64,000 nt of DNA. It comes from a virus. Its lineage: Duplodnaviria; Caudoviricetes. The stretch lies in the IMG/VR virus record IMGVR_UViG_3300014969_000001, positions 1 to 64,000 of that record. The stretch is one strand, 5' to 3'. The position numbers and the translations under genes are program-made. Below are positions 4,196 to 34,086 of this stretch, piece by piece; position 1 is the first letter of the stretch; each line of letters starts with the position of its first letter. The notes under the pieces are model-generated. The model made no database searches, had not been told where the DNA came from, and was given only the letters and a program-made list of their open reading frames with translations.

Positions 4196-6674
4196 ACCAT
4201 ACCGAAGATACGCAGCTGGCGCTCCTATCAGTAAATTACAGATGGGTACGATGGCGGCACAAGCCGTTGGCAACATGATGCCAGGCGCACAGCAATATGA
4301 AGATGAGGACAGCAATTATATTGCTCAGATGAATAAGCGGCAGCAGCAAAGCGGCCAGATCACTGATACTGCTTCTAATCTTTTAATGTCTACAGGTAAT
4401 CCAATAGGTGTGGGTATCGGTGCCGGGTTGATGCTGGGCTCAAAAGCTGATGCTGCAATACAGAAAAAATTGAAGGATGAAGAAGGCTTTTACAAGTCTG
4501 ATTCAGCCCGCTTCTGGGGTAAAGCATCTGAGAATATTCTGAATCCTGTAGCTGCTATCAGTAATCAGATAGACTTTCTTGGTAATAAAGATTACTCTCT
4601 TTCTGATAAGCTATTCCATGGCAATAGGGTGCAGAAGGAGATGGAGCAGAAAGCGAAGGAAGAATTAAGATTAAAAAAACAGGCAAAAGCCAATGAACTT
4701 GCCAATAGCTTATCAGCTGGTCAGTTCGGTGAATCGATTATGAGCCAATCCTTCCAACCTGGAGGGCGCATTTTATATCCTCAGAGAGCTATCCCATTAT
4801 CTGCTCAACAAATAGCTAATAATGTAGAAAGAGGAAAAGCAATGGTGCAAGCACGCAATCTCTCTTATCTTAGAAATGCTGCGAATATTGCTTCTTTAGC
4901 AAGAGGTATTCCAGAACCAATTTCTCAGGGTATAGGTTGGGGAGGCGCAGTAATTAGCGCAGGACTAAATGCTAAAGATGCCTATAATGCTTATCAAAAA
5001 GGCGATTATATGGAAGCAGCTAATCAGGCAGCACAAGCAGGATTAGAGGTTATTCCTGGTGGAACAGCAGCATTTAGAACAGCTGAAAATGTGATCCCAA
5101 AAGTTGTCGGTGAAGGTATGGCTATGTATAATGATTATAAGCAAGGACAGAATGAAATGGAAGCTGCTCGACATAAAAGAGAAAATGGAGGTAGGATCTT
5201 ATTCCCTCATAGAATTTTTAAAGGTGGTGGAGTAACTACACCAGTTACTAAACCAATTGCTAAACCTTTGAATATTGCAGCTACTGCACAAGACAGTATG
5301 GACCTATATAATAGTGCTAAAGCTGTACAGGATTATTACACCAATAAGAATACTTTCGCTAAAGGCATATATTCACAAGGTACTACATTAGGAACTAATA
5401 ACCAGACTCAAGCAAACATCTTTGAGAATCTGGATTGGGGTGCTCAGACTGCAAAAGATAGAGCAGCAGCAGGTGAAACAACCAGGATATCTGAAGCAGG
5501 TAAGGTTACTGACAGAGTGATGGCCCCTGAAGAATATAGAACTGATATTGATAAGAATAGATTTACACAACGTGAAGTACAGCAACGTATTATAGATAAA
5601 GATTCACCTGCACCATTATATGATAGGAGAATTAAACCTCAGTTAGATGTATCATACAAAGGTCTAACTGGTCCTATGAAGGGTGATGAAGTACAAATGT
5701 ATGGTTATGACCCTATTGCTGTTAAACCTTGGCATTCAATGTCTACTGTTGAACAGAAATTGAGAGTAGCTAAATATGGCTTTCCTCCGGGAATAACTGC
5801 TATTGTAGAGAAACCCGCTCTTGAACAAATGACAGGCAGAGGCACATCTATTCAACCTACTGTTGCTCCTGTTGTCAATCCTGTAGTTGCTCCTATTCCA
5901 ATGCAACGTGCGCCAGTTCAAACTCAACCTACAACTACTCCTGTACCTGAGAAAGCCACTAGAAGGAATACAGACCCATTTCAAAGAAATGTACTCAATG
6001 AAGTTATGACTGATAGGGGGCATTATGTTCAGAAAAAAGTTAAAGTTCTTTCAAATAGAGAAAAAGCTGCTGCAGCCAAACATGAAAATGGTGGCCGGAT
6101 TCTCTATGCTAAAGGTGGTGGAATACATATAAAGAAATCACACAAAGGCCTATTTACTGCGAAAGCCAAAGCAGCTGGCATGAGTGTTCAGGCATTTGCC
6201 AGACACGTTCTTGCTAATAAAGAAAAGTATTCCGCTGCTACAGTAAAGCAAGCTAACTTCGCCAGAAACGCTTCTAAGTGGAAACATGAAGAAGGTGGTG
6301 TAATCCAGAAATTATCCAGCGGTGGTCGCATTCTGTTCCCAAGTAGAATCCTCTCAAAAGAGCTACCTCAAAAAACGATTGTAAATTACAAACGCGGGGG
6401 TGCAATTATCTTAGGAGGTAAACGCCATGAAGATGAATCCCTCACTGATCTTGGCAAAGGAAATCCTATAATGGATACTGAAGGCAAGGTAGCTGAAACT
6501 GAGGTAGGCGAATTGCTATTGAGCTTACAGCAGACTAAAAGAATCATGGAGCTTTATAACCAGGCGAAACGTGAGCCAGGCAATGCAAAAACCTTACTGA
6601 CTGAATTAGGACGTGAGATGCGTGATATTGTGATGACAGAAACTATTGATAAGTCAGGAGAATATAACCTATGA
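4179..6674 (+). CDS. Virion cargo (ejection) protein with repeated xxGGRIL motifs
   Basis: 831 aa; four GGRIL(Y/F) repeats; crAss-type block GIHIKKSHKGLFT..KQANFARNASKWKH; C-terminal GGKRH...AETEVGE domain; follows the muzzle gene. Confidence 0.65.
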   Translation: MNPILRPYRRYAAGAPISKLQMGTMAAQAVGNMMPGAQQYEDEDSNYIAQMNKRQQQSGQITDTASNLLMSTGNPIGVGIGAGLMLGSKADAAIQKKLKDEEGFYKSDSARFWGKASENILNPVAAISNQIDFLGNKDYSLSDKLFHGNRVQKEMEQKAKEELRLKKQAKANELANSLSAGQFGESIMSQSFQPGGRILYPQRAIPLSAQQIANNVERGKAMVQARNLSYLRNAANIASLARGIPEPISQGIGWGGAVISAGLNAKDAYNAYQKGDYMEAANQAAQAGLEVIPGGTAAFRTAENVIPKVVGEGMAMYNDYKQGQNEMEAARHKRENGGRILFPHRIFKGGGVTTPVTKPIAKPLNIAATAQDSMDLYNSAKAVQDYYTNKNTFAKGIYSQGTTLGTNNQTQANIFENLDWGAQTAKDRAAAGETTRISEAGKVTDRVMAPEEYRTDIDKNRFTQREVQQRIIDKDSPAPLYDRRIKPQLDVSYKGLTGPMKGDEVQMYGYDPIAVKPWHSMSTVEQKLRVAKYGFPPGITAIVEKPALEQMTGRGTSIQPTVAPVVNPVVAPIPMQRAPVQTQPTTTPVPEKATRRNTDPFQRNVLNEVMTDRGHYVQKKVKVLSNREKAAAAKHENGGRILYAKGGGIHIKKSHKGLFTAKAKAAGMSVQAFARHVLANKEKYSAATVKQANFARNASKWKHEEGGVIQKLSSGGRILFPSRILSKELPQKTIVNYKRGGAIILGGKRHEDESLTDLGKGNPIMDTEGKVAETEVGELLLSLQQTKRIMELYNQAKREPGNAKTLLTELGREMRDIVMTETIDKSGEYNL

Positions 6675-6919
6675 GCTTGAAACCCAAACCAAAAAAACCC
6701 GCCACTGATGTCGGCATGGTTCAGATGAATGGTGTAAATGGAAAGGCAGAAAAAATCCTGAAAGGGAGTGAACGCATCTTCTCTCGACAGGACACCAAAA
6801 AAATCGTACAAAAAGCTAAAGTAGCTGAGGATGAGAATATGCTATATGATCTTGGTTCAATGATATCAAAGATGATTGAGAAGCAGGATAAGTTAGGTCC
6901 AGAATACACAACTGATTAA
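6671..6919 (+). CDS. Small conserved crAss-like virion/cargo protein
   Basis: 82 aa with GSERIFSRQDTKKI...LG...QD..PEY pattern recalled from crAss-like phages; resembles the C-terminus of the upstream ORF; ATGA overlap. Confidence 0.6.
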   Translation: MSLKPKPKKPATDVGMVQMNGVNGKAEKILKGSERIFSRQDTKKIVQKAKVAEDENMLYDLGSMISKMIEKQDKLGPEYTTD

Positions 6920-6939
6920 TAACTCTAAATTATAAGACC

Positions 6940-7365
6940 ATGAATTACATTGAGAAATATGGCAATCGCAAACGCGAACCTAGAAAGTTTCAAGGAGGAG
7001 GAGATATGCCTGGAGCAGCAGCACCAGAAGGAGCACCAGCAGGACCGCCACCGGGAGCCGGAGCGCCACCGGCAGGAGGAGAGATAGAATCTATGCTTCG
7101 GGAATTTGTAACGACACAGGACCCGCAATTAGCTGTACAGATCTGTACTATGATGGCGGCACAAATGGGTATTGAAGCTCCTGCACCGGCTGCACCGGAA
7201 GGTGGTGGTGCTCCTACCGAAATGCCGGGTGGTGCCGGAATGCCAGGCGCACCTACAGGAGCGGGAGCAGGTGGAATGCCAATGGGTAAACGTGGTATGT
7301 CAATACCAGTTCGTACACAGATGCGCACTTTTGCAAAACCGACAGTTATCAAACCTAAACTCTAA
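6940..7365 (+). CDS. Small Pro/Ala/Gly-rich crAss-like cargo protein
   Basis: 141 aa; RKFQGGG N-terminus, QDPQLAVQIC helical core, GKRG C-terminal motif. Confidence 0.6.
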   Translation: MNYIEKYGNRKREPRKFQGGGDMPGAAAPEGAPAGPPPGAGAPPAGGEIESMLREFVTTQDPQLAVQICTMMAAQMGIEAPAPAAPEGGGAPTEMPGGAGMPGAPTGAGAGGMPMGKRGMSIPVRTQMRTFAKPTVIKPKL

Positions 7366-7370
7366 TTGTC

Positions 7371-8540
7371 ATGCCTGTAGTTCGTAAACCTGTAGTTCGC
7401 AAACCTGTAGCACCAGTAGCACCTATAGCGCCTCCTGTATTGATGCCAACTGCAAAACCTGGTCCTCAATACTATAGAGATCCTAATGCTATTGAAACTA
7501 GCAGAAATACTTATGAGCTACAGACTAGCAATAATCCATATGAGAATTTACAAAGATCTGCTCAATATGATTATAGTCCAGATCGTGTAACAGCTCCGCC
7601 AACACCGGTACCAGTAACGCAATTTACTCCTTCTCCGGAATGGTATACTCAAACAGGTGGAGCAGCTGGTGCAATGCCACCACCTGTAATACCAGCAGGT
7701 CCACATTCTACTGCAGCAGATCAAAGAAATCAAACTGCTATGGGTGGCCTGAAAAGAATAGGGGAATCAATACAAAATAATCCACTCGGAGCAATCAATA
7801 CCGGACTTGGAGTAGCTGGACTTGCTATGTATGCCACAGCTAAAAGGCCTGGTCAATTAGCTCGCCCAGCTACACTTACTTCCGAGATTCCTGTGCAATC
7901 CTATGAAGATGATCGCGCGCGCGCGCAAGCTGCTCAGGCTGCTACTATGAGCACCGGACAGATGGGATTACAACGTCAGGCAGGAAGTGACATAAATTCT
8001 TATATTGCAGGTATGCAGAATTTGCAGGGCCAACAAATAGGAGCTAATGCCGACCTCAATCAAAAGATCATGGATCTTCGTCGTGCTGATGCTACAGCCG
8101 CCGCAGCACAGCGAAACGAGGATACCAAATACAACCTTGCAACACAACGCTCATATGATGAAGCCATCTACAATGAGAAGGTCGGTAGATTCAATGAACA
8201 ACGTGCCAAAGGTGAAAAGCTGGCTCAGTCCTCTCTAGAATATTGGAATGCTAAGAATACTGAAGATCGTCAGTATGCTGAGAATATCAAGAAACAAAAA
8301 GGTGAACAGGCTAAATTAGCTTTCGATGCTGAATTACGTGACCTCTCTACCCGATATGGTACAGTTCCTGGTTTAGCTCAGATGACTCCAGAGCAACAGG
8401 TAGAAGCAACAAAAGCAAATAATTTAGCCCGGGAAGCAGAACGTACTGAATTATATAAACGCTATGGTATTGTTCCAGGAGCATCACCAATTGAAGGAAT
8501 AGCAAAAGCACCAGATTTAAAAAGATCAGTAACCCAATAA
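7371..8540 (+). CDS. Putative cargo/ejection protein with a hydrophobic segment and coiled coil
   Basis: 389 aa; Pro-rich N-terminus, LGAINTGLGVAGLAMYA hydrophobic stretch, Q/A-rich coiled coil. Confidence 0.55.
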   Translation: MPVVRKPVVRKPVAPVAPIAPPVLMPTAKPGPQYYRDPNAIETSRNTYELQTSNNPYENLQRSAQYDYSPDRVTAPPTPVPVTQFTPSPEWYTQTGGAAGAMPPPVIPAGPHSTAADQRNQTAMGGLKRIGESIQNNPLGAINTGLGVAGLAMYATAKRPGQLARPATLTSEIPVQSYEDDRARAQAAQAATMSTGQMGLQRQAGSDINSYIAGMQNLQGQQIGANADLNQKIMDLRRADATAAAAQRNEDTKYNLATQRSYDEAIYNEKVGRFNEQRAKGEKLAQSSLEYWNAKNTEDRQYAENIKKQKGEQAKLAFDAELRDLSTRYGTVPGLAQMTPEQQVEATKANNLAREAERTELYKRYGIVPGASPIEGIAKAPDLKRSVTQ

Positions 8541-8544
8541 GATT

Positions 8545-10848
8545 ATGCTAAGACCGAACAGATTACACCGGAAAGTACAGAAGCTTCAAGAAGGTGGATA
8601 CATCTCGCAAATAGGAAAAACAATAGGGAAAACCTCACTTGCTAGTGGGGTTTTGCCGCAAATAGGGACAGCGTTAGACCAAGCAATTCCCGGGCTCACG
8701 CTTACCTATAAACCAATAGAACGCGCACTTCCCCCAGATCTCGCATCTATTCCTATTGCTCTTAAAGCAGAATCTTCGAAAGTAGCTGCAGAGAAACAGA
8801 AAGCCGGTCAGGATGTATTCACGAAAGCTATCGCCGATAAAGGTTTTAAACCCTGGCAGCAAGCTAAGCTGCAATCTGATATGCAGGCTGTCCGTGATGA
8901 GATAAAGAATAACCTGACTTCAGATCCTAATTACTACTCAAGTAGTCTTAATGCTCATAACCTTGAGAGTTCATTAAATTCTCTCGTTTCGAGTGAGCGT
9001 ATGTCTGTCTTTCAGAATCAACTGAAAGAAATAGAGTCAATGCAAAATCATATTAAAGCAGAGAAAATAGGAGAGAATACCTATCTGGATGCTGACAATA
9101 AAGTGCATTATAATCCTAGGACTGGAAAACAACTAACCTATAATGAATACCTCAATACTATAAGCACAGGTGCCGCATCAGATCCATTCGTTCAGGAGTT
9201 ATTGCAGACTTCTAAAAGACCTGAAGGATTTGTGTCTTTCTATAAAGGAGCAGGACAGATACCGGAAGATGTCACAAGTGAAATAGCAAAGTTTGTAAAT
9301 GCTGTAAAACCAGATACAGTAACCAGAGGTGGTGATATTAAAGGTATAGATTTACAACAAGCTGATGCCGCAAATATTTGGGCAAACTTTAAAAGCTATG
9401 ATAAAACATTCTCATCTACTGAAAAGAAGATGAATGCTTTATCTACAATGCTAAAAACGAACTGGCGTGACTTACTTGGTCCAAGAGCACAATATGCAGT
9501 TGAAGAAGAAGGAAGAAAGAAATTCCTGAACTCACAATGGGACTATAATGGTGAAAAAATGTCTGGCGCTGCTTTAATGCAGGGTGATGATAAGATGAAG
9601 GCATTTGCTCAGCAAAAGCAAGAAGCACAAACTAATAATGTCATTAATGATATTATCAAGAATCAAACAGATCTTGGCAGAGTTACTACAGATATTTATA
9701 AAACTCAATCAAATCGTGAAAGAGTGGTAGCTCCTGCTGCACCGGATTCAGGAGGTGTTGGTGCTGGTGCAGATGGAGAAATCCTTGACCGTCCTACTAT
9801 ACTGGATGCACAAAGTTATCTCGCAACAAGTAAGGATGCTCCATTAACTTTTGGATTTGCACAGGACAAAGTGAATATCCCAATCATAGCGACATCAACT
9901 AAACAACCTGATGCTACTAAAACATTCGATAAAGTTAATATCACAGCAGCGACAGGTTATGATATTTCTCAACAAGGATGGACTAGTAGCCGAACTGCTC
10001 CATTGCCATTAAATTATAATCTTGTTGGAGCTACTCATCAAAAGAATGTTGTTGTTCCTGTTTATACCGGAATTAAAATAGCTAAAGATGGTTCAAAGTT
10101 ACCAAGTGATCCTAATGTTAAAAGTATACTTGTTTCAGATGGTACTGCAGGGGATGCAAAAAGACATGGTGTACCTATGCATTTTGAAGGAGGAGGACCG
10201 CCTAAAGTTAGGTATGATAAAGATTGGGGATATAATTATGTAGAAGATGATAAAGGCAATCGCTATGTAGTAGAAAATAAGTCATTTGAAGTATGGTCAG
10301 GTAAGCAAGAAGGAATGTTAGATAAGGATGTTACTATTTTAAAACCGGATGATAAGAGTAGTTCACAGGTCAAATATGAAGGTCGTAACTTCAGTGATGA
10401 GAAAAATGAAGATTATATCCGGAAAAAGAAAGATGCTAAAAATAGAACTGTATTAGAACCTACACCTCAATATGACACTGCAATAAAGGCTTATACCCTT
10501 GCTATGCAAAATCGCTTTCAAGAAGAACTGGCAACAAATAAAGAACAGATAGAAGCAGATCCAGATATCTATAAAGCGATTCATGCAAAATATGCACAAG
10601 CACTTGGTGGAGAATCCTATGCTTTTGATGGTAAAAAATGGAAAGCGAAGACTTATAAAAGTCCACTGCAATTAATGAATGAATTAAGGGATGATCCATT
10701 TAAATCTCAATTATTAGCAAAGAAGATAAATGCTGAACTTGCCAATTATGAGAATGGCCTTCGCTATAAAACATTAGAAAGAACATTACCACAAGAAAAA
10801 GCTATAGCTCCATCTTCTACACAAACCAATACCTATACACAACAATAA
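8545..10848 (+). CDS. Putative cargo protein
   Basis: 767 aa; starts with the KLQEGG motif shared with the other cargo proteins; directly upstream of vRNAP. Confidence 0.55.
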   Translation: MLRPNRLHRKVQKLQEGGYISQIGKTIGKTSLASGVLPQIGTALDQAIPGLTLTYKPIERALPPDLASIPIALKAESSKVAAEKQKAGQDVFTKAIADKGFKPWQQAKLQSDMQAVRDEIKNNLTSDPNYYSSSLNAHNLESSLNSLVSSERMSVFQNQLKEIESMQNHIKAEKIGENTYLDADNKVHYNPRTGKQLTYNEYLNTISTGAASDPFVQELLQTSKRPEGFVSFYKGAGQIPEDVTSEIAKFVNAVKPDTVTRGGDIKGIDLQQADAANIWANFKSYDKTFSSTEKKMNALSTMLKTNWRDLLGPRAQYAVEEEGRKKFLNSQWDYNGEKMSGAALMQGDDKMKAFAQQKQEAQTNNVINDIIKNQTDLGRVTTDIYKTQSNRERVVAPAAPDSGGVGAGADGEILDRPTILDAQSYLATSKDAPLTFGFAQDKVNIPIIATSTKQPDATKTFDKVNITAATGYDISQQGWTSSRTAPLPLNYNLVGATHQKNVVVPVYTGIKIAKDGSKLPSDPNVKSILVSDGTAGDAKRHGVPMHFEGGGPPKVRYDKDWGYNYVEDDKGNRYVVENKSFEVWSGKQEGMLDKDVTILKPDDKSSSQVKYEGRNFSDEKNEDYIRKKKDAKNRTVLEPTPQYDTAIKAYTLAMQNRFQEELATNKEQIEADPDIYKAIHAKYAQALGGESYAFDGKKWKAKTYKSPLQLMNELRDDPFKSQLLAKKINAELANYENGLRYKTLERTLPQEKAIAPSSTQTNTYTQQ

Positions 10849-10864
10849 TCAAAAACTTAGCCAT

Positions 10865-13800
10865 ATGAGTCCAGATCCGAACACTGCAAATAAGAAAGCA
10901 AAATCTAAAGCTACAGACCTGACATTTGATGAAGTTGAGAAACAGAAAGCAGCGATGCAGGATGATGAAGCGCCTGATAATTTTCTCACGCAATCTTTTA
11001 GAAGTGGATTAGCAAATCCAATACAGGAAGAGCCGCCGATTTCTACAGAATCTACTACAGAAGCTTCTGATGATTTTGATCCTGAAACAGATTACCTATT
11101 ACCATTTAAGAAATCCAAACGGAAGAAAGGTAATCGTATCGCTAAGACTAAGGATGAAGTTGATAGAGAAAAAAGACTTCAAGCAGAACTTACTTCATTT
11201 GATCAGGGTGCACCTGGAATGGATGCTTTGAAGTTGGGTAGGGAAACTCCTGATGTGCTTCGCAAAGCTTTCATGGAGCAGATCAATAAAAAGCTTGGAG
11301 GTTATGAGGTTGCCACTCCCTTTGATATAGAGAATGATCTTGTTAAAGATGCCTGGGATAACTCAGCTTTGAAAACCAGAAAGTTTGAAAATGCCAAAGG
11401 TGAAGAACAGGATTTTACTGGTTCCGGATATGACAAGCAAATAATTACTGGTAATGAAGCTGGTATCATTACTGAGCAAGTTGTTCCTCGCGCTCCTGTT
11501 GGTTCTGATAAGTTTAATCCTATGGGCCATGATCCTGGTCTTGGAGAAACAATTGATGCTGTAGGAACTGCATTAACGAATCAAAAAAACAGAATCTTTG
11601 ATTCAGCAGCAGGTCAAGGTTTTGCTAAGCTCTTTGATCCTGATTTTGACAAGACTGTATATAAAGTTCTTGCTCCGGGTATTGGTAAAGATGGTGCGCC
11701 TATTATGAAGGAATATGTAGGCACGCGTGCGCAATTGGCACAGAATAATATCAATGCTTATAACTTTTATGGTTTAGCCAATAAGAATACCTACTTCTTT
11801 GATGATATGGCAAAGTCCTTTGGGAACTGGGCACTAAGCAAAGATGATGACCTTATTGGTACAGCTAAAGCAGTGCAGTCTATTGGTCGTATGGTAGCAA
11901 GACCTTTTAGCTGGGCTTTTGGTGATAATAAAGACTGGCAGGATAAATACGAAGAAACCTGGATAGACAAGGCTTATCGTCGCACTCGTGAAGATACACA
12001 GCGTTCTTCTTTAACGCTTTCAGAAAATGCAATGAATACCTTTAGTGCTGGCTGGATTGCTGCAGGTATAGGTAGTTCTATAGGTTCACTTATTGACTTT
12101 ACTGTAGCTGGTAGTACCATTAAAGGTGCTGCCGGTGTGGGTTCCTTAGCCTTTAAAATGGGTGGAATAGGTGAGGCTGCTTTATTGAATGTAGGAAGAT
12201 TTGGAGGTACAGCTGCTATCACTGGTGTGGCTGCTTTCCATGCTGCAAAGGATGCCGGTCTTTCTGATGAGGAAGCAGGTCTTTATACTATCATTGCAGG
12301 TGGTCTTTCATCTGCTATAGAATCAGCTGGATTGTTCAGTAATGATGCTATGCGGAAATGGTTGCTTGGTGGCAAGCATAAAGATCTGGCAAAAGATATG
12401 GTTAAGCTCTTTGCTATTGAAGCCGAAAAGAAAGGTGGTAAAGCAGCAGCAGGAGCAGCCATAGGAGCAGTTACCCGTGAATCAGCAGAAGAAGTTTCAA
12501 AGAAATTGTGGCCTAAGATGATAGAATCTTTAGGTGCAGTAGCCAGAGGAAGTGGTAGATTTCTTGGCAAGATAGACCCGAAGGTAATGGCTGAAGAAGG
12601 CGTTACAGAAGGTTTGCAATCCTTATCAGATCAGACAGTCCAGGTATTATTCAACAATACTGTTCTAAAGCATAGAGAAGCAGGTAAAGGTAAATTCGAT
12701 GATCTTAATTCTATTGCTGATATTAGAATCAAGGAAGCATTAGGTGAAGCTTTTATTGGTGCTCTTACTTCTGCCGGTACATCTGTATTCATGCATGGTG
12801 GTCCAAGTATTGGCGAGTATGTAAAAGATGGCAAATCCCGGGAAATGATTCTTGGCCTGGATAAACTACTTCAGGAAGGTCGTCTGACTAAAGATCAATA
12901 TGATAATCATGTTCAGACTATCAAGTTTGTTGAAGCAAAGCTTAATGAAAAAGAAGATGTTTACAAGAGCTTCAGCAGACACAAATTAAAAAATCAGTTT
13001 GATAGAGAAGTAACGCAGCTTATCTCTGAAAAGGTAGATGCTCAAACGCGGGTAGATAAAGCCAAAACAGCGCGTGATGCTTTCATGTCTAAGATAGGAG
13101 GTGAGAATGCTTCTAAAACTATATCACCTCAAGAACAAACACAATTAGATAAACTGACAAATGACCTTGATTCAGCGCAGGCGATTGTAGATGCAAAGGA
13201 TTCGGCAATCGATAATTATAAGGATACCGCTTACATTTCAAATAGAACCAAAGAAATCTCTGACAATAATCTTAAACTTCAAGATTTAAAGAAGTTTAAT
13301 TCAGAGAAAAGTATTGGCGTTAATGAGCCACCTGCTAATAATCTGGGTGTGATCATGGCGCGTGACAGTGTTGTAAATGAGCGTGGTGATGGTCTTAAAG
13401 CTGCTTTCCGTCATGATTCCGAATTCCAATTAGGGTTTGATGAATATGGTAAAGAGAAGTCTGATGTAGATAAAGCTGAACTAAAAAGAAAACTCACCAA
13501 CGACCTAATATCCACAAAAGCATACCTCCATCCTACACTGAATACTGATAAGAATCGCGCAATAATGGAAGAACTTATGGGAGAGAAAGCAAAGGAGTTT
13601 CTTCCACTAAGTCAGAAACAGCAGAAAGAATACCACACTGTACTTCAGGAAAGAAATGATTATGCTGAAAGAGTAATGAATGCCATTCCTCTTGCAAAAC
13701 AGACAAATGATATTGAAGCTGTAGCGAAAGAGCAAGGTGTAAAACCTGTGGATTTGGAATATGCTATTCTTCATGCTGATGCTGGTAATCCAGATACAGC

Positions 13801-19800: not shown

Positions 19801-22800
19801 GATGATAGCCTTGCGTGATGTAACTGACAACTTGAGCGACCAGGCCATACTTGCTTCTGTCTACTATGATGAGGAAGAAAAGAAATATAAAGTCGATAAA
19901 GAGAAATCACGATCAATCCCTACAAACAGAACTGATGCACAGGGATATATTTCAGAACGTTTCGATCCTGTATTCCAGGCTGCATTAGGTTCTCTTGGTG
20001 GATTCAGAGCACCTTATAAGCCTGTAATGTTCGGCCATGATGACAATGGATTAGAACGTGCAATGCCTATTTATCTAAAACTGTCACTCACTAAAATTCC
20101 AGATCCGGATACAATAGCTGGCTCCGCCTTCTATGTGGAGTATCCGCAACTTGAGCAATTTGCCCGTAAGTTCTATGATGCCGGCGCTGATATTGCAGTA
20201 TTTGAATCCGGTATCAAATCAGGTTTAAAGGCTCTTAATCATTGGGATGATGGTGACTATAGAACCCAGGAAATTGACCTTCGAATGCTTGGAGTTCAGA
20301 ACAATCCTTCCCATGAGTTACATGAAGATGATACTATCCGTGACCTTATCCAGATGGAAAAGCAGATGGGGGATATGGATAATTACTTTGGTGAAGGTGG
20401 TTTATTCGAATACTGGGCTATCAAGTCTGCTATCCTTCAGACAAAGACTGATAACTATTTCCGGAATAATCTTGATGACATCGATACCCTCTATACAAAT
20501 TTAAAAGAGGAAATGCTTAAACGTGACCATACCAAAGGTTTGGGTATGGCACTGGATAATAAGATGCGTCTTGATAATCCACGCATTGCTACACTCATGG
20601 AGAATATGGTTGCTAGCGGCCTATTCATCAATACAGCATCGGAGAAGAAGCTTGGCTCTAAGCTTATCAATATGTCTGATGTGGGCTATACCCGTCCTTC
20701 CTATCAGGTAGTAGATGGCAAGATAGTGAAAGCCGGTAATATGGAACTGCAATGGATGGGACCTCGCCGGGCGACTGAGCTTTCAGAAAAGCAGCTTCTG
20801 GATTTATTGCATCGTCAGGAAGAAGGAGAGCAAGTCTTTGAGGACAATGATCCTTCCGGTTATATTCTCGACGACAAAGGCACCGTTAAGATTTATCCTG
20901 CAGATATCCTGGTACCAAAACAAGACCACTACAATATTGGTGATCCGCTAATGGCAGCACGTATCCCGGGTTCAGGAAAGAACTCTGTAGTTGCTTCCGA
21001 GATCGTAGGTTTCCTTCCTGCAGATATGAACAATGTGACTGTAGTAGGTAAAGCCGGACCTGGAGTAATGGGCTTTGACTTTGATATTGACGGCTTCTTT
21101 GTATGGAGGAAGTCTATTGATCCAAAGATGAATGAAGCGAACAGGATGTTCGACATCTTCTTTGACAAGATGCTTGAGATGAAGAACTACATGGAGGTTA
21201 CTTCACCGGTATCTACAGACCGTCTTAAAGAGCTTGCCAACTTCCTTGATAAGAACCGCCAACTGGTAAATGAGCAGAAGGGAATTAAGCCATATGACCG
21301 CTTTACCCTGATGCGTCAGATACAATTGAAAGACCTGAATGGTGAAGGTTCTACATCGATCGGTATCGTTGCTTCTGCTTATGGTGCACATTCTGTATTC
21401 TCACAATTGGGGATGTCATTACAGGATAATTATGTGGAAGGAAACAAATTCTTCCAGCCACATATGTTCAATAGACGCGGGTATCTTGTAGATAATACTT
21501 TAAAGAAGGCTTATGCAACCAGATCTATTGGTTCTAATGGAGAGGAATCAATGGTATTTGATGCCTTCGTTCAGTTACTGAATGCTTCTACAGATAATGC
21601 CAAGCTGCAATACTTAGGTCGTCTTGGATTGAATGGCCAGACAATGCCGGTTGTACTCGACATGATCTCGCATGGTGTGAACATGGAGTATGCTATCCTA
21701 TTTGTAAATCAGCCTATCATTCAGGAATACATAGATGAGGAATTCAGACGGCGTGGTGCAGTTACTGAAAGTGACTTTACAGATACCTATCTGAAAGTTC
21801 AGCAAAAGTATGAGAAGGCCACGCGGGTATATGAACCTGGCTATGAATATAACCCTACAAATGAGAAAGGAGAAACAACGAATGAGAACGCTATTTACAG
21901 AGTTGTAAAACATCCTCAGATGGGCCTTGTAACCAGCTTAGAAGATCGTAATAACGTCAGCTATCGTGAACTGGAAGAAGCCTATGAACCTGAAAGTACA
22001 TTTGCTTCTGATGCTACAAGAGCAGAGAATTTAAAACGTCAGCTTTCCATACTTGAGAAGTTCAAATATTATAAGTCACTTCAAAAGGTTACTGGTGATG
22101 GCGCACGTCTTGTAAAGTTTGCATCTGAATATCCTACTACGATGCTTGACCTTGCAGATAATATTCATAGGATAGAGAAAATATTAGGTAACTATGATAG
22201 TGAAAAAGAACGCTGGGTAGGACAGTCACTTGATATGGAGAAGCTGATCTATGGTCCGGATGATAAGCTTTTTTCTGGTAATGTATGGCATCCATATTAC
22301 CGCAACCAATTCAATACATTAAAAAAATTGCTTAACTGGTATGGAGGGCGTGAAGTTAATTTATATGCCCATCCAATGATTATGTTTAACCATAAGAAGA
22401 TGACTGAGGGTAAAGACCTCGCTACCCAGGAAAAACTAATGCAGGGTTTCTATGCTTATGTTCTTTCTGCTGATGAGCGTTTATCTCCTTCTATTCTTAC
22501 TGGCGATAAATACACCCAGCCATGGCAATTTGTAGATGAAGCAGCGCAACTTGTATCAAAGTTACAGGCTGAATATCCTAACAACTATTTCCTGAAATAC
22601 ATGAAGGTTGAAAAACCTAAAACTGATTTCGAAGGAAATACTACTGGTACATATAAGATAGCCTTCAACCGGTATCAGGCAATTACTCCTGAATTAGAGG
22701 TTAAGATTGCTAAAGCGTGGGATGAACTTCCGGAAGCTTATAAGTATGGTGAGATGACTGTGAACATTAAGCATATGCTATTGGCAAACCTTGCCCATAC

Positions 22801-24919
22801 GAAAGGTTTCAAGTATAGTGGATTCTCTTATGGTTCCCTTATCCCTATTGAGGTAATGCAAGAGTTTGATAGGCACATTCAAAGTTTCCATGATGCCCTG
22901 GAAGAATTAAGAAGATCACCGCATGATAGGGAATTCCATTTCTTCACACCTGAAGAACAGCAGGCCTATATAAATATGCCGGAGGAAGCTCGCGCTATGA
23001 TTACAAATGATGATTTTGAAATGCCTTTTCAGGAATCAATCGCAGATGTTTTCAGAGAACAAGATAATATAAATGAGGAAAAGGTCAGCAAGTTTGCATT
23101 GCTTACCGGTATTGAGGAATCACGCATCCATGAATTGCTGAACCATGAAATAGAATTAAAAAAGATAGTAAACCTCAGTGATTTCAAACGACAAGGATAC
23201 CTCAATAATCCAAAGTTAATTCCCACTATTGAACAAAATTCATGGAATAAGGCACAGGGGAAAGACCATACTTATGGTGGTGGCCACCGCATAGATTTTG
23301 ATACCAGAAGCAATAAGCATTTTTATGTAAAAGCTAACAATGAAAACTTTACTCTGGATCAACCTATGAATTTCACTGATCAGGATGGTAATGAATACAA
23401 TAGTATTGCTCATGCTTATGCTTCTACTTGTGAAGGTTCATTTAATGCTGCTAACTATGAACGCTTCAAAGATCTTAATTCCTTTAGCGAACAACCAGAA
23501 TTATGGGATATCTATAAAAGTTTGCCAGTTAATAAGAGTAAACTTAATGAACTCACCTTTGAAGCATACACTCAGAACAGAAATGGTGAACTGTTAGATA
23601 CTGGTAATCAGCAACTGGTTATGCGGAATGATTTTCATATCGATCCAGAAGTGCTTGAGAGTGTTCGTTCTCAATTATCTAAAGAGGATTGGGTAATAAA
23701 TGGTATAGAGGCAGGTCAGGGCCATAGAGGTGGATTAAAGCAAAACTTCGATACGGCTGGTAATGAAGTGAGTATTTCTATTATGTCTAACCCGAAATCT
23801 TTCTTTATCAAAGGCATGCTTAGTCAGCTTGAAAGGACTGAAGGTATTGTGAAGATCATACGTCGTCAGCAGGATGGCAATAAGGTTGTATCACGTCCTG
23901 TCATTTATGAAGTTGTAGATGCTCATGATGTATATGTAGTTGGTAGCGGAATGCAAACTGAGTTCACATTGAATGAAACTGCCTTTAAGCCTGTAAATGG
24001 TGTGCTTCAATACAAGCGTGAATATGGAAAGAGCTTTACTGAATCTCTCAAGAAGTATGTTTCAGAAAGTTATAAAGAGGCTGATGAAGCTTTCCTTGCA
24101 CCAGCTACACGGGTAGATGGATTTGATGATAATTATCTGGAAGAAGGGATTGTAGAGGATAGAGATAATATTGTCGGACTCAAAGAGCAGCCAAATTTAT
24201 TATCTATTGCACGTCGCACATTGAATGAGCTTAAAGCAAAAGGCATCGATTCAAAAGAGTTGCTTGCTGACTGGGGTAAGGAAACCAAATATGCCTTTCC
24301 GAATATGACCAAGCTTCTTGATTACTATATGAATGGTAAGGACAGGGCCTTGTTGCTTGTTGCTAAGAAGCAGGTTGGATGGCTTACTGGTACTGCACCG
24401 CTCATGGCTTATGAGCTTGGTAAATTGCCTGTATCAATGAATATTGTCAGAAGCAAGGAAGAGAAACAGGATATGTTCAGACGCAGCGAGATACGGCCGG
24501 CGACAGACCTTAGTAAATATGCCAATGCAACGCCAGGTATGAATGGCTATGAGCTAATGTTGGATGGTGCGCGGATAGGTCATGTCTTAATGGATGGCCC
24601 TCTGGTTAAAGAGCTAAACATAAGATCTGAGTATCAATCAGGCCGCTTGGCTACCAAGCTTATCAATGGTGTGAGAAAGCTCAATCCTGGTCAGTCATTA
24701 CGCTTTGATGATGTGAGTGAGCCAGCCATTATGCGGATAGCAAGGAAGCTAGGTATACAGGAGGAAACAGCTACAAGTGTTGCTTTAAAACCTTATATTG
24801 AAAAGGATCCTGCAGTGATTGAACAGGAAATAGAAGCAGACCACCAAGCAACTATTGCCAGACGTGTTCAGGAGAACCATGATACCCAGGATAAAATAGA
24901 TCAATGCCTAAACGGATAG
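10865..24919 (+). CDS. Giant virion-packaged DNA-dependent RNA polymerase (crAss-like, fused), polyvalent
   Basis: 4684 aa; catalytic GFDFDIDG (nt 21077-21091) as in phi14:2 gp66-type vRNAP, plus RTDAQGY, YLKLS, FESGIKSG, ARIP, TDNAK..LGLN; zincin HEYRH...EFLSE at 14327; N-terminal hydrophobic helices. Confidence 0.9.
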   Translation: MSPDPNTANKKAKSKATDLTFDEVEKQKAAMQDDEAPDNFLTQSFRSGLANPIQEEPPISTESTTEASDDFDPETDYLLPFKKSKRKKGNRIAKTKDEVDREKRLQAELTSFDQGAPGMDALKLGRETPDVLRKAFMEQINKKLGGYEVATPFDIENDLVKDAWDNSALKTRKFENAKGEEQDFTGSGYDKQIITGNEAGIITEQVVPRAPVGSDKFNPMGHDPGLGETIDAVGTALTNQKNRIFDSAAGQGFAKLFDPDFDKTVYKVLAPGIGKDGAPIMKEYVGTRAQLAQNNINAYNFYGLANKNTYFFDDMAKSFGNWALSKDDDLIGTAKAVQSIGRMVARPFSWAFGDNKDWQDKYEETWIDKAYRRTREDTQRSSLTLSENAMNTFSAGWIAAGIGSSIGSLIDFTVAGSTIKGAAGVGSLAFKMGGIGEAALLNVGRFGGTAAITGVAAFHAAKDAGLSDEEAGLYTIIAGGLSSAIESAGLFSNDAMRKWLLGGKHKDLAKDMVKLFAIEAEKKGGKAAAGAAIGAVTRESAEEVSKKLWPKMIESLGAVARGSGRFLGKIDPKVMAEEGVTEGLQSLSDQTVQVLFNNTVLKHREAGKGKFDDLNSIADIRIKEALGEAFIGALTSAGTSVFMHGGPSIGEYVKDGKSREMILGLDKLLQEGRLTKDQYDNHVQTIKFVEAKLNEKEDVYKSFSRHKLKNQFDREVTQLISEKVDAQTRVDKAKTARDAFMSKIGGENASKTISPQEQTQLDKLTNDLDSAQAIVDAKDSAIDNYKDTAYISNRTKEISDNNLKLQDLKKFNSEKSIGVNEPPANNLGVIMARDSVVNERGDGLKAAFRHDSEFQLGFDEYGKEKSDVDKAELKRKLTNDLISTKAYLHPTLNTDKNRAIMEELMGEKAKEFLPLSQKQQKEYHTVLQERNDYAERVMNAIPLAKQTNDIEAVAKEQGVKPVDLEYAILHADAGNPDTARRVVQESFEHDAPDSYKESRKKTLENEDLIRHAYNAQEDLESAFETPELSQPHLSKQRYQAGNKFFQAFHGLAHLVFNSRDYGITPAMWHSRSNSSLITSRLTKNENKILQTIAAATGRPIAMHVMDAPGMVDENDIPDRKGFFDEPNSLVVIMADMKRMEIDKKYRKEVFATVLHEYRHHMTNEAVGRMFTSWIKCKKNNVPLTPEAKQYQRLFDLSKLTYNLLIKDEKLHNEYFLNVAHGNIQGNTFNTFTGANESFTMVKEFLSEVQSSEVLQKAISTINLNDKGLRDSLNKIYNYDEIPKTGSHSLLKEVWTQLNKVFTSISRLFTPGERVLLKEAITLMNSIPLSKYAVNFDIPSAGEAQRAAENTMVSTPDHPTVTSDNPRRMDNFVENMKPVNLLSDMDVPSVAEVAETILMQYQKAITDPDTGRPLPELLEIASDINESDPNTPRNIFIREVQDSLDYWIQKNNYDKKSLKVVFFQGTNQFLVSWNTLTGSTERLFFNKDGSRAQINSNIFNDTEWNEVVNDDFYEAFGTNWLDNNASATRFLLNQFEKARGKGFKGRITLRQDPGYEHTLGDTSKTGNIYIMHLDEDSRAITPIGVLPALAAPAVTAALNAGAQVTCEVVEKASGLGHALWVKRDIIGGIQRVEHKDNIKTKEDIELMKANGFEFETGLFPTVHITFKSVEGTSLKEIKNLTRDQYTFHDNSVEIDTAETHFMTREELAMSRTPSMYDAFQVETHSFYDNGPTEVDDEVSAKIDFHEERMRRLLRYKAAWRADLSDEDIILFANDLLSKAIDDLQDQFPDVPALENFGFDTPQKLGEFHVSLIEEELKRVKFESNRKVSSGWNGESINPNSTTSELIKYDVERMMFFDENGKFGHMTYSDAKDILSLAATNIRSFAELTDNLRKMSKDKFNSRRRRNIAYSLYRNYTMERPAGDQELFEKAKNSYVSQLGGYIHHDAVAYSKDGDGTRVTTLGKGQDGKNEFDRVISKMMVRVEKIKAKYEERKAKFESTHKDQKYMSLYKYFEIYTGQLPYKDPTRTDMMPGINKIGSLKDTVNGNTLGIPGYIAPNGKQVKVLTDEEYNQAKELLAKFFDLLDIELPMSVLDRKLLNPDEISEANQVMLELYQQQLIKTRNEEWDKMMDAWDAVAESTKELPRTLDVTQRLSRVDADQIPVEFSTYMEAMNRSNKLITSSDLAPLLGDGLDAIGSFTMNDSQADAVFDKDNPKTIFSNTEQFHSTFYKGDGVYTIPGHGPVHIRHYKTAMASEFTKPQLEALAQYEGYENLDEMYNNGDEGTKAFFMGQEPKVMYRISPVLANAGVYNRSDVVALVPRLDGTMTMPATELKNAIDARVKFSTLKENERTAAADLNLAKYLEKIGYTESEPGIWELKSTVDLRESGLARPDKDQWLADEDAIIKQHVESKSKELAENVHLSGERPMYQYHMVEFNKSGKEFNPETKVDKYSPEFKSLPYIELYLQLAAYLTNGKTYENKVAVAGGIKAHFADGLPLDLKTREIKVAVEEEMKRRGDFETPDFYFDPTNTKIHAHKIKSYADTIYERLATDKKEILRYQNHEIWQNNIIIDHLNEYGTTARPKMVGGIFSKEDASNNTDYRTASNMEFLYMHASHFVGTSTSGEGKYYGHIGDVPSDKGRNLVYPLKRIPPKNYKGEIKRIQRVEAKRMELAEQAFTDALIEAPLVKGGQEVRVPVLDENGVQKISKRTNEPMTRLADSGVFLLRHHIDKDGKVVIDHKAFDKLAVNVDFIRATEGGVPESKGGRPLVFEGKEGDPRNGMPLYIKGNIFNTKNHFFAGQSEDQIHTELMKQATQAYAEYAAKGFQMPVASDWIEQNNPNKIIESQQRERDRLNDRLTYLYQERSIAALKGVDERANLANDILNAKETIKKYDDEIAPLKEEIEQREKNYAIDLEAKRLETFKNMMFNHLINRYHLSQLLQGDYIFYGNGIDDNFTSLSKRMAGTYAPAQMPVFEEGKHKGKMIALRDVTDNLSDQAILASVYYDEEEKKYKVDKEKSRSIPTNRTDAQGYISERFDPVFQAALGSLGGFRAPYKPVMFGHDDNGLERAMPIYLKLSLTKIPDPDTIAGSAFYVEYPQLEQFARKFYDAGADIAVFESGIKSGLKALNHWDDGDYRTQEIDLRMLGVQNNPSHELHEDDTIRDLIQMEKQMGDMDNYFGEGGLFEYWAIKSAILQTKTDNYFRNNLDDIDTLYTNLKEEMLKRDHTKGLGMALDNKMRLDNPRIATLMENMVASGLFINTASEKKLGSKLINMSDVGYTRPSYQVVDGKIVKAGNMELQWMGPRRATELSEKQLLDLLHRQEEGEQVFEDNDPSGYILDDKGTVKIYPADILVPKQDHYNIGDPLMAARIPGSGKNSVVASEIVGFLPADMNNVTVVGKAGPGVMGFDFDIDGFFVWRKSIDPKMNEANRMFDIFFDKMLEMKNYMEVTSPVSTDRLKELANFLDKNRQLVNEQKGIKPYDRFTLMRQIQLKDLNGEGSTSIGIVASAYGAHSVFSQLGMSLQDNYVEGNKFFQPHMFNRRGYLVDNTLKKAYATRSIGSNGEESMVFDAFVQLLNASTDNAKLQYLGRLGLNGQTMPVVLDMISHGVNMEYAILFVNQPIIQEYIDEEFRRRGAVTESDFTDTYLKVQQKYEKATRVYEPGYEYNPTNEKGETTNENAIYRVVKHPQMGLVTSLEDRNNVSYRELEEAYEPESTFASDATRAENLKRQLSILEKFKYYKSLQKVTGDGARLVKFASEYPTTMLDLADNIHRIEKILGNYDSEKERWVGQSLDMEKLIYGPDDKLFSGNVWHPYYRNQFNTLKKLLNWYGGREVNLYAHPMIMFNHKKMTEGKDLATQEKLMQGFYAYVLSADERLSPSILTGDKYTQPWQFVDEAAQLVSKLQAEYPNNYFLKYMKVEKPKTDFEGNTTGTYKIAFNRYQAITPELEVKIAKAWDELPEAYKYGEMTVNIKHMLLANLAHTKGFKYSGFSYGSLIPIEVMQEFDRHIQSFHDALEELRRSPHDREFHFFTPEEQQAYINMPEEARAMITNDDFEMPFQESIADVFREQDNINEEKVSKFALLTGIEESRIHELLNHEIELKKIVNLSDFKRQGYLNNPKLIPTIEQNSWNKAQGKDHTYGGGHRIDFDTRSNKHFYVKANNENFTLDQPMNFTDQDGNEYNSIAHAYASTCEGSFNAANYERFKDLNSFSEQPELWDIYKSLPVNKSKLNELTFEAYTQNRNGELLDTGNQQLVMRNDFHIDPEVLESVRSQLSKEDWVINGIEAGQGHRGGLKQNFDTAGNEVSISIMSNPKSFFIKGMLSQLERTEGIVKIIRRQQDGNKVVSRPVIYEVVDAHDVYVVGSGMQTEFTLNETAFKPVNGVLQYKREYGKSFTESLKKYVSESYKEADEAFLAPATRVDGFDDNYLEEGIVEDRDNIVGLKEQPNLLSIARRTLNELKAKGIDSKELLADWGKETKYAFPNMTKLLDYYMNGKDRALLLVAKKQVGWLTGTAPLMAYELGKLPVSMNIVRSKEEKQDMFRRSEIRPATDLSKYANATPGMNGYELMLDGARIGHVLMDGPLVKELNIRSEYQSGRLATKLINGVRKLNPGQSLRFDDVSEPAIMRIARKLGIQEETATSVALKPYIEKDPAVIEQEIEADHQATIARRVQENHDTQDKIDQCLNG

Positions 24920-24923
24920 CCTT

Positions 24924-27900
24924 ATGAAATGCCCGAACTTAAAACACCCCGACGCACAAAAGCTTATTGCCAAGATTGGCATGTTTGAATTCTTTAAAGA
25001 ATATGCACGCAATGGCTACGAGATACCAGATCCGGATGGATATGCAGATTCACTTCAGGGAGTTAATGCCTCCCTGAAGATTGTTGATGCCATTGCTTCG
25101 CCGGCAACTCAGAAGCTATTTGACAAATTCTATCAGAAGGATCCTGGTAAGTTCTTTAAGGAGCTTTTACAGCAGGGAGCCAATAAGCAGCAGATACAAA
25201 TGCTTCAGGATTTATTGACTACTAAACCGGTAGACAATCTCTATGATATGGCTGCCGATGTACTGGCTCACCTTGCCTATACTGTAGAAATGAAGACTGC
25301 TATAAAGGATAAGGAACAGGGAAAGTCGGAAATGTTCATTGAAGAAGTTCCTTTTCCTGATTTTTGGGAAGCAGGTGAAGGTGGACCTACTGTAGATTAT
25401 GTAGTAAACCAACAGTTTGCCGGAGAAACGTTTCCTCGTAATATCGGAACCTTTGAAAGCCGTTCTGAAGCAGAAGCATTCATGCATACAGAGCAGGCTA
25501 GACAAGATGTAGAAGAACTTGGAAAACCTACCAAGCACTATGAACACATGATTGTTCCAGGTGGGGTGAATTATAAAGAAATAGAAATTCGCACACCGGA
25601 AATTTCACCTACGATTAAAGGCCATGCTGCATTTGCTACAGATAAAGGTATTGGCTGGTTCCGTACAGATGAGGCTGATACGAATGCAGGAAAAGTTCGC
25701 CGCGTTCTTGAAATGCAATCTGACCTATTTCAGAAAGGTCGTCAGCTTAAAGAAATTTCAGAGCCTAACCTTGAAGATGAAACTGTAGCTGCAATGGTAG
25801 CTGGAGAGCTTGCACAGGTCGCTCATGAGGCAGGTCAGTATCCAGAGGGAGTATCACAGTACCAGGCTAAAGTAGCAGCAATCAATCAGGCCAGAGCTAC
25901 AACGGCAGCAGGAAACATCCTTGAGATAGAGGAGAACAAAAACCGGAACAACTTCATGCAGTTACTCAATGATGGTAGTTGGGTGAATTTCTTTATTAAA
26001 TCCATAGTGCAGGATTCAGTAAAGAAAGGCTTTGAAAAACTTCGTTTTCCTGCGGGTGCTACTGCTTCAGCAATACAGCAACATACTGAGGTATTACAGA
26101 GCATAAAAAACATGGATAATAATATAGATAAATGGAAAGCTAATATTATTGATCTGCAAGATAAGCTGAAACTGCTACCAGAAGGAGATGAACAACTTAC
26201 TAAAGAACTGCAAAATGCGAATGAAACATTATCGAACTACGAAAGTCTGCGAAGTGAATATGATGAAACTGAAGCAGACATCAAAGCAGTCAAGGCCTAC
26301 TATGAAGACCGCGTACAGAATATTCTCACCAAAACCTATCCGACAAATAGGATCACGGATGAGCATAGTAACGAATGGTTTGAAGTTGCCCTCGATAAAG
26401 AACGTGATCTTTCTCCTATTAGCTTTTATGACAACCAGCCTACGCCGCCGGCAGAGCACTATGAAGTAGAACCTGACTTTATTAATACTGCTTTTCAGAA
26501 AGGCAAAGATGGACTTCGCCATGTCTATTCAGGAAATAGCGTTCTTGGACAGATAGGAACACCAGAAGCCTATAGCCGGTACCTTGACAATATCTTTCCA
26601 AACAGTATCGTAAAAGATATTGTATGGCGCAGTGGACGTGAATACTATGCAGACACCAAAACCCCGTTCGTTTACTTCTCTAAGGACCGCGAGCAAGTTA
26701 AGAACTATAATGCTTCGCATATTAGTACCAATAGTAATATTGCTGAGCGTGACGCTCTACCGATTATCCAGCAAAATGTCCTTCAAGAACTTTTCGACAA
26801 AGGAGATATCAGTAGTGATTTTATTGATTTTGTTGAGCAGCGCTACCGGTACGAATACAAAGCGCTAAAACAGCAGATTCCGGAAGCGATAAAGGAATAC
26901 AATAAATATACCTCAATAGAAAATAATCACCCACAACTAAATGAGCTACGTCAGTTCGAACAGCTTCACAACCTTGTCAAGATAGAAACTGAAGAAGATC
27001 TTATAAAGACGCAGCAGCCGCACTATGACCAGGCTCTGAGAGATTATCAGGCACTGTATAATAAGTTCTCCTCATACCACAGAGAAAGTCCTGTAGACCT
27101 CATAGAAGCTGCTATAATCAATCTTACTAATCCAGCTGATGCCGGCTCTGATGCAATGGGCCATACTGATTCTTATAATCAGGGATATGATGGCGCCATC
27201 TCTTCCGATGGCAATGGCATTCTTGTAAGCAGAACCAGAGGGCAAGTGCATATGCTTGGCTCCAATGAGGACATGCATAACTTCAAGGAGTTTGTCGAAG
27301 GGGAAGAAAAGCGTGATATGAATTCCTTCTTTGACAATACCATGTTCAAGCAGGAATGGAATACCATGGATACTTCCCTACAACAGGAAGAGATCAAGGT
27401 AAAGATGGATGTCTTTGGTGGTGACTACAATGACCTTTTAACTGGAAAGCTTCTTTGGACAGATGAGATGCAAGGGTATTTCTGGAATGCAGCACAAAAG
27501 CGGAACTACACCTATGATGAGTATGCTACGAAAAGATATTTTGAATACCAGGATAATAAGCAGCATCTGAAAGAACTTTATGACAAGATAAAGAAACACA
27601 ACTATCTTGGAGTAGATGCTAATGGTAATTCTGTCACCAGTTTTCAAGACCTTGAAGCAGAATACTTCAAGATCATGAAGTTTGGAAATGTTGAGAAGGA
27701 ATTAATGGGTGAGGTATTCATGTTGATTGCCGACAAAATGACCAAGTACAGGGTAACGGAACAATGTACTCTTACTGCAAGATTAAACCCTGAATTAGAT
27801 CCTGACAATATCCGTCAAACAGACTTAAATGTATGGGATAAAATTATCCATGCTAAGTCTGACTTCAATATCACTCATGCCGGGATGCAGCATATTTCAA

Positions 27901-32189: not shown

Positions 32190-32450
32190 TTATTCGTCCC
32201 CTTTCTTAAAGAGATTCTTTCTTATGACTGTGTACTTCATCTGCTCATAATCCCGGCGGCGCTTTGCTCTCTTATTTGAGAACTCATGCTGCTTATTTAT
32301 GGAATATTGCTCACAGAAATGATCTACTGCTAACTGGCGAATCTCAAAGCCATCCCAGGCACCCGGGATATTATTGACCATCTCAATCAGATCCTGTGCG
32401 AAGGTATCGGCAATCTCATGCGCGATTCTTAGTTGTTCTTCCTTCGTCAT
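32190..32450 (-). CDS. Hypothetical protein
   Basis: 86 aa ORF, TAATG-coupled to the upstream gene. Confidence 0.7.
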   Translation of the reverse strand: MTKEEQLRIAHEIADTFAQDLIEMVNNIPGAWDGFEIRQLAVDHFCEQYSINKQHEFSNKRAKRRRDYEQMKYTVIRKNLFKKGDE

Positions 32451-32839: not shown

Positions 32840-32861
32840 ATCAAAGTTTTAAGGTTTGCAC

Positions 32862-33962: not shown

Positions 33963-33996
33963 GATTTTATAGGCTATGAATTTTAACTATTAAAAA

Positions 33997-34008
33997 ATCA
34001 AAAGGAGA
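33997..34008 (-). promoter_or_regulatory. Phage promoter-like motif copy 1 (TCTCCTTTTGAT)
   Basis: Repeated intergenic motif 35 nt upstream of the ATG, adjoining a terminator U-tract. Confidence 0.65.
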
Positions 34009-34011
34009 GAA

Positions 34012-34046
34012 AAAAGAAAAGGCCTAACCATTGCTGATCAGACCTT
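34012..34046 (-). terminator. Intrinsic terminator
   Basis: Minus strand AAGGTCTGATCA-GCAA-TGGTTAGGCCTT followed by TTCTTTTT; G-U pairs make it minus-strand specific. Confidence 0.8.
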
Positions 34047-34086
34047 CACTTAGCCTATAAGAACCGTTATGCCGAACTGTCTTATA
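34012..34086 (-). ncRNA. Putative multi-target antisense small RNA A
   Basis: Host promoter TTG-N20-TATATTTG upstream; TATAAGA/TCTTATA stem displaying CGGCAT; 12-bp GNRA terminator hairpin; complementary to many start-codon regions. Confidence 0.65.

Follow-up and report, generated by a model that had tools for sequence, protein, structure and literature searches.

The question raised by this locus is whether one small RNA (sRNA) can act on the start codons of six consecutive genes of a crAss-like phage, among them the gene of its giant virion RNA polymerase (vRNAP). The window analysed here covers the first 64 kb of a virus record from soil (IMG/VR record IMGVR_UViG_3300014969_000001), which is 101,590 bp long and has direct terminal repeats. 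An earlier note on this DNA had pointed out that a 34-nucleotide (nt) stretch of the minus strand, called sRNA A, can pair with these six starts, and had proposed that the same RNA silences or delays the synthesis of the vRNAP and of the other ejected (cargo) proteins. Our answer, to which we give a probability of about 0.6, is that the six sites are ordinary operon start regions, that in the 34-nt stretch we have a local anti-start element directed at the gene lying next to it (32949-33962), and that the vRNAP match is more probably fortuitous or secondary than functional.

A candidate anti-start element facing the adjacent gene

The following features make up the locus from which sRNA A would be read.

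34047-34080, minus strand: pairing stretch of sRNA A, 34 nt, with seed 1 (GGCAUAAC) and seed 2 (CUUAUAGGCUAAGU)
34018-34047, minus strand: intrinsic terminator hairpin and T-run (13-pair stem, then TCTTTTTTCT), ending the sRNA A unit or a 3′ untranslated region (UTR)
33994-34012, minus strand: promoter-like cassette (TTTCTCTCCTTTTGAT), with the anti-start stretch on one side and the start region of the neighbouring gene on the other
33949-33977, minus strand: start region of the adjacent PAPS-reductase-like gene (32949-33962), the strongest and a colinear partner of the 34-nt stretch
34125-34154, minus strand: sigma-70-like promoter-like site, TTGACC-18-TATAAT, 11/12 matches, which could start sRNA A near 34118

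The complementarity between the stretch and the adjacent start includes a perfect 10/10 inverted repeat, I1 (TTATAGGCTA/TAGCCTATAA), whose arms at 34051-34060 and 33967-33976 lie 74 nt apart. When the read-through RNA was folded, seed 2 and seed 1 were found to pair colinearly with positions -14 to +12 of gene 32949-33962, and this fold reaches -43.2 kcal/mol as against -28.1 ± 3.5 for shuffled sequences (z = -4.3; 0 of 200 shuffles as good). The duplex formed by the matched cassette and start has an energy of -24.9 kcal/mol, while mismatched pairs of cassettes and starts give -10.4 ± 3.5. A second start in the downstream operon (32190-32450) also carries a perfect 9-nt match, CACTTAGCC.

In phage T4, genes e, soc, 49 and I-TevI are untranslated on read-through transcripts and are translated from promoter-proximal ones (PMC3014915). 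A complementary upstream segment and a stable long-range helix, as at T4 gene e, are both found at gene 32949-33962, and the layout of 33945-34100 on the minus strand resembles this masking or an sRNA with an adjacent target. As in T4, the complementary segment lies upstream and would cover the start region, and the promoter that in T4 is placed between or inside the arms would here correspond to the promoter-like cassette near 34005. Unlike in T4, a full intrinsic terminator is also present between the two arms, and the upstream arm could leave as a separate RNA. It may be noted that this parallel concerns the neighbouring gene and not the six genes of the proposed circuit. On the reading that we prefer, the 34-nt stretch, an imperfect inverted copy of the start of gene 32949-33962, would mask that start in transcripts passing the terminator at 34047-34018 (minus strand), and transcripts begun at the cassette between the arms would be translated, since the mask is missing from them. 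Once released, the RNA could act on the neighbouring gene as well. We infer from sequence that sRNA A is made and that the cassette is a promoter, and likewise the direction of any regulation.

Between 34005 and 70131 the minus strand has about 18 near-identical copies of the cassette, all of them 33-57 nt ahead of a start codon, and judging by this arrangement the cassette is probably the main promoter class of the phage for the minus-strand block. The copies read tttTCTCCTYYTGAttatttt and often stand directly 3′ of terminator hairpins. Masking in cis was also considered as a general feature of the cassettes and was rejected, the mean for matched pairs being -11.1 versus -10.4 for mismatched ones; only the 34008 cassette, and perhaps the one at 69318, deviates.

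Pairing at the six start sites

The vRNAP gene and the six sites with which sRNA A had been paired are listed below, the lengths of the products being given in amino acids (aa).

10865-24919, plus strand: vRNAP gene, coding for a giant protein of 4684 aa, a crAss-type virion RNA polymerase on the basis of its DFDxD motif and giant homologues
10855-10871, plus strand: vRNAP start region from -10 to +7, covering the AUG; 14 bp, 1 bulge, 1 G-U, -16.6 kcal/mol
24917-24927, plus strand: start of the 1690-aa gene after vRNAP; 10 bp with seed 2, -8.9 kcal/mol
7364-7375, plus strand: start of the 389-aa gene (ATGCC); seed 1, 11 of 12 positions with 2 G-U, -10.2 kcal/mol, marginal
6668-6675, plus strand: start of the 82-aa gene; 8 bp, -8.6 kcal/mol, chance level
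6931-6939, plus strand: leader of the 141-aa gene; 9 bp with a bulge, -7.3 kcal/mol, chance level
8543-8549, plus strand: start of the 767-aa gene; 7 bp, -6.6 kcal/mol, chance level

The six target strings and the 34-mer at 34047-34080 (minus strand) were all located at their positions with the letters quoted for them, and recomputed duplexes reproduced the counts of base pairs, G-U pairs and bulges at all six pairings. In the vRNAP pairing site the leader word ACUUAGCC has its counterpart in the sRNA A word GGCUAAGU, and the vRNAP start region is unstructured in the fold prediction. At 24917-24927 the TAG within TAGCC is the stop codon of vRNAP itself, and the ATG of the 82-aa gene overlaps the preceding stop as ATGA.

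To compare these pairings with chance, 108 called gene starts were scored by RNAduplex energy, the tests of seed 2 being run with the 17-mer UUCUUAUAGGCUAAGUG. The controls were dinucleotide shuffles, random genomic 34-mers, antisenses of leaders, windows inside genes, windows at internal ATG or TATGA, and the starts of a related phage. As a group the six sites do better than with shuffled sRNAs, the comparison that the earlier note had suggested: their mean energy is -14.95 versus -11.02 ± 1.29 for dinucleotide-shuffled 34-mers (P 0.003; P 0.001 in a seed-split test), and it is also lower than with 250 random 34-mers of the genome or with the antisenses of 107 other leaders. But this is mainly because of the vRNAP site, without which P is 0.012-0.03, uncorrected for a block picked after looking. 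With seed 2 the vRNAP start reaches -17.6 kcal/mol and ranks 1 of the 108 starts, whereas the other five lie at -9.8 to -6.8 with shuffle P values of 0.04-0.22; seed 1 adds the start at 7371 only (-11.4, rank 6, shuffle P 0.042). Against windows inside genes, P is 0.0004 for vRNAP and 0.04-0.39 for the other five. Among 2531 internal ATG windows a single one is as good as the vRNAP site and among 240 internal TATGA windows there is none, while the other five have P values of 0.12-0.51 against TATGA-context windows. Per window, pairing beyond chance holds at vRNAP and is lost at the other five, and the caveat of the earlier note that the shorter matches could be chance was well placed for five of the six sites.

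Site by site, P at 24917-24927 is 0.066 with internal ATG windows as the control and 0.17 with TATGA windows. For 6668-6675 the corresponding values are 0.07 and 0.18, with a net energy of -2.2 and an accessibility P of 0.30, and for 6931-6939 they are 0.38 and 0.50, with no favourable net interaction. The site at 7364-7375 has P 0.11 and 0.075 against internal natural windows (accessibility P 0.046), and that at 8543-8549 has 0.39-0.51 (accessibility P 0.24). Once opening energies are included, the vRNAP start has a net energy of -9.4 kcal/mol (rank 3 of 108, P 0.0007) and the other five range from 0 to -5.9; the contact at 24924 shrinks to a 5-bp GGCAU:AUGCC helix when accessibility is counted. 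On the preferred reading, five of the six matches are of the trivial short-word kind.

The source of such matches can be seen in the leaders. TAGCC is found 10 times within 25 nt before starts, in 9 genes including vRNAP and the next gene, where 1.8 occurrences are expected. With at most one mismatch, TTAGCCTATAA has 8 occurrences in the genome, three of which stand 15-20 nt before starts and one of which is the plus strand of the sRNA locus, and GTTATGCC precedes or forms several starts. The plus strand of the sRNA locus resembles a composite leader (TTAGCCTATAA-N8-ATGCC) and is colinear with that of gene 60446-60658. The recurrent partial matches arise because TAGCC is enriched before start codons, and an RNA that mirrors one start region therefore touches other starts. 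Several start regions of the phage have short words (TAGCC, ATGCC, UAUGA) in common with that of the neighbouring gene, which on the preferred reading leaves the 34-nt stretch with short complementarity to many starts.

Alternative explanations

The alternative that survives best concerns the vRNAP site. It holds that sRNA A is a diffusible sRNA or a 3′-UTR-derived RNA that also pairs with the vRNAP mRNA from -10 to +7, and perhaps, though weakly, with 24917-24927, so that 30S binding is blocked and vRNAP synthesis is damped or delayed. We consider it possible but doubtful. Several observations speak for it and weigh against a purely local element. Four independent controls mark the vRNAP match as unusual, and it is placed where sRNAs block initiation, covering the AUG of an open target. 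None of the 122 starts of the related phage, which is similar in composition, comes as close (best seed-2 energy -11.6 and best full-length energy -17.0, versus -17.6 and -20.2 for vRNAP), and sRNA A pairs better with the starts of its own phage than with those of the related one. Accessible interactions of -9 kcal/mol or below were found at 4 starts (45542, 60446, vRNAP and 84674) versus 0.14 expected, which means that strong accessible matches are enriched at start regions. Also, the other 13 cassettes are without a masking partner. The sRNA A unit, with a promoter-like site and a terminator and without coding potential on either strand, fits a free sRNA; only 5 sites as good as its TTGACC-18-TATAAT were found on both strands of the 101.6-kb genome. 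The arrangement of the locus would equally well suit a reading of the stretch as the 3′ UTR of a transcript of the endonuclease gene and a 44-aa open reading frame (ORF). This ORF (34126-34260, minus strand) lies between the endonuclease gene and sRNA A and contains the sigma-70-like promoter in its 3′ end; its codon score is 0.22, like that of a real gene.

Two known cases make the vRNAP pairing conceivable. GibS, a trans-encoded sRNA of Bacteroides thetaiotaomicron, anneals with two seeds across start codons that have no Shine-Dalgarno sequence, and represses the operon adjoining its own gene as well as a distant target (PMC7366714). Bacteroidota mRNAs of this kind can thus be repressed in the way proposed, also in an operon next to the sRNA gene. 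However, GibS belongs to the host, has a long single-stranded seed at its 5′ end, is conserved across Bacteroides, and was validated by deletion, electrophoretic mobility shift assay and probing (PMC7366714), whereas sRNA A is phage-borne, has its seed 2 in a stem, is absent from the nearest relative and is known here from sequence alone. In the crAss-like phage phi14:2 the vRNAP gene is among the middle genes, which are read from sigma-70-like promoters, and abundant non-coding RNAs are present (bioRxiv 10.1101/2020.03.07.982082). These are likewise intergenic non-coding transcripts of a crAss-like phage, but they are long and are encoded elsewhere in the genome, no targets have been proposed for them, and no sequence relation to sRNA A was found. 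The promoter-like site, the phi14:2 RNAs and the four accessible starts are the reasons for which we keep a minority chance for the vRNAP site, and with a site that is statistically unusual and spans the AUG, sRNA A could repress vRNAP.

The match is not decisive because 0.04-0.13 matches of vRNAP grade are expected over the 108 starts, because sites of like strength occur inside genes, and because seed 2 is held in a stem. In a scan of both strands, in-gene sites for seed 2 were found at 57178 (minus strand, -18.3), 77560 (minus strand, -18.1), and 79831 and 90049 (both -17.2), and the vRNAP leader in turn has equal or better partners elsewhere in the genome. The raw counts of strong matches are not specific either, because the GC-richer among the natural 34-mers at equivalent cassette positions give similar ones (at RNAduplex energies of -16 or below, 14 for the one at 42279 and 13 for sRNA A). 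The fold predicted for sRNA A places seed 1 in a hairpin loop and seed 2 mostly in the 3′ arm of the same hairpin, whose stem is formed by UAUAAGA/UCUUAUA (inverted repeat I4, 7/7) plus GC pairs. Opening costs 7.2 kcal/mol for seed 2 and 2.9 kcal/mol for seed 1. Seed 2, which is the one that pairs with the vRNAP, 24924, 6671 and 6940 sites, is thus not an accessible single-stranded seed, and the net energy at the vRNAP start is borderline because seed 2 is largely buried in its own hairpin. On the mRNA side, the stop codon of the gene upstream of vRNAP is 16 nt ahead of the vRNAP AUG, and terminating ribosomes of that gene would sweep or cover part of the pairing site. Neither a homologue of sRNA A nor covariation was found in the nearest relative. 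Finally, the sequence of sRNA A is already accounted for by the stronger, colinear complementarity to the start of the adjacent gene. That one RNA would mask the neighbouring start and, going by its sequence, also pair across the vRNAP start codon and lower its translation is likewise an unlikely combination.

A further alternative takes TTAGCCTATAA and GTTATGCC as a leader motif read by a protein or by the ribosome, the sRNA A locus being an inverted copy of such a leader and its complementarity a by-product of shared ancestry or of shared motifs. The copies of TTAGCCTATAA before starts, the composite leader on the plus strand and the enrichment of TAGCC agree with this. But such a leader would need a gene, and the candidate for it, a 74-aa ORF on the plus strand at 34069-34293 that would make the sRNA a mere leader antisense, had to be rejected: its codon score of -0.07 is like that of antisense ORFs (-0.11 ± 0.11), versus +0.12 ± 0.13 for real small genes, so that no gene explains a leader there. 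Also, the vRNAP leader fits the complement of the sRNA (13/14 plus a bulge) far better than it fits the motif in other leaders, and there is no known binding factor. We therefore regard this explanation as improbable.

A joint silencing of all six consecutive cargo and vRNAP genes by sRNA A at their start codons finds no support and is very improbable. The mean energy does lie below that of shuffled or random RNAs, and no other run of six consecutive genes has a mean as low, but the signal is mainly that of one site in a block chosen post hoc; in matched controls the other five do not rise above chance, with the P values and net energies given above.

The vRNAP gene, its operon and its relatives

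The identification of the vRNAP rests on several points. The 4684-aa protein has DFDID at residues 3405-3409, and a HMMER search of the whole library returned 11 giant homologues of 3657-5502 aa, in the alignment of which GFDFDxD (aa 3403-3409) is invariant. Since crAss-like phages have DFDxD as the hallmark of their virion RNA polymerase (bioRxiv 10.1101/2020.03.07.982082), the vRNAP label is sound. No sequence match to the protein was found in Pfam, PHROG or PDB, the library holding no model for the vRNAP family. A HExxH zincin motif (aa 1155-1159) is likewise invariant across the 11-member giant vRNAP family (3657-5502 aa).

The gene lies in a densely packed operon on the plus strand (59-29996), with spacers of 0-20 nt or overlapping stop and start codons. 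The start regions of this late operon are A/U-rich and without Shine-Dalgarno sequences. The label cargo for the genes upstream of vRNAP comes from gene order only, because their proteins have no homologues or family matches. Within the window, an Rfam search gave no RNA family match and no tRNAs were found. A C-rich word (AAACC, AACCC or CCTAAA) stands 5-20 nt ahead of many start codons, for example at 39-58, 7352-7360, 24902-24909 and 32850-32860 of the window. Near starts, CCTAAA is found 6 times versus 0.44 expected and AAACCC 8 times versus 0.55 expected. This word may be a phage- or host-specific initiation signal in place of the Shine-Dalgarno sequence.

No close relatives were found in viral contigs, metagenome contigs or phage records, and searches with the cargo protein and with the vRNAP N-terminus return only themselves. 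The nearest full-length relative identified by profile search is a phage of 104.6 kb (G001), whose vRNAP is 28% identical. A homologue of sRNA A was not found in it, which at this level of vRNAP identity is weak evidence. Its PAPS-reductase-like gene abuts the upstream gene directly with no intergenic gap, and its vRNAP leader is unrelated (AAATTCGGCAAATATG), with partners of -18 to -22 kcal/mol that are all within coding sequence. A second genome (L003), with a PAPS reductase 56% identical, has no intergenic gap at this place either.

Two other places on the minus strand may be mentioned. The ORF at 53480-54103 has its first ATG (54103) inside a terminator hairpin, GGGCGGC...GCTGCCC, with a T-run. 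Translation probably begins instead at 54037, with an ATGCC that follows the cassette at 54074 and would be another GTTATGCC start. A terminator hairpin at 40734-40757 has the stem TAGCCTAT/ATAGGCTA, the same word as in the leader of the next gene, TTAGCCTATAAC (40692-40702), which lies 20 nt ahead of the ATG at 40682.

Meaning for crAss-like phages

Nothing that was observed falls outside known kinds of RNA control. Besides T4 and GibS, the c4 antisense RNA of phages P1 and P7 may be compared with sRNA A. It is encoded upstream of its target in the same direction, it is cut from the same transcript as the target, and two of its short segments pair with the downstream ribosome-binding region, by which it controls the immunity gene ant through icd. 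For sRNA A, in contrast, neither processing nor a role in immunity is indicated. Gene regulation in crAss-like phages is poorly known, and to our knowledge control by an sRNA has not been reported in them.

What is useful here is for the most part negative. The six-gene circuit dissolves under matched controls, and local masking of the T4 type explains the sequence of the RNA better. The vRNAP site is left as the one precise hypothesis. If true, the vRNAP pairing would be a case of a phage sRNA timing or limiting the enzyme that the phage must package for the next infection, and this would also be the first report of riboregulation in the ejected-protein module of Crassvirales.

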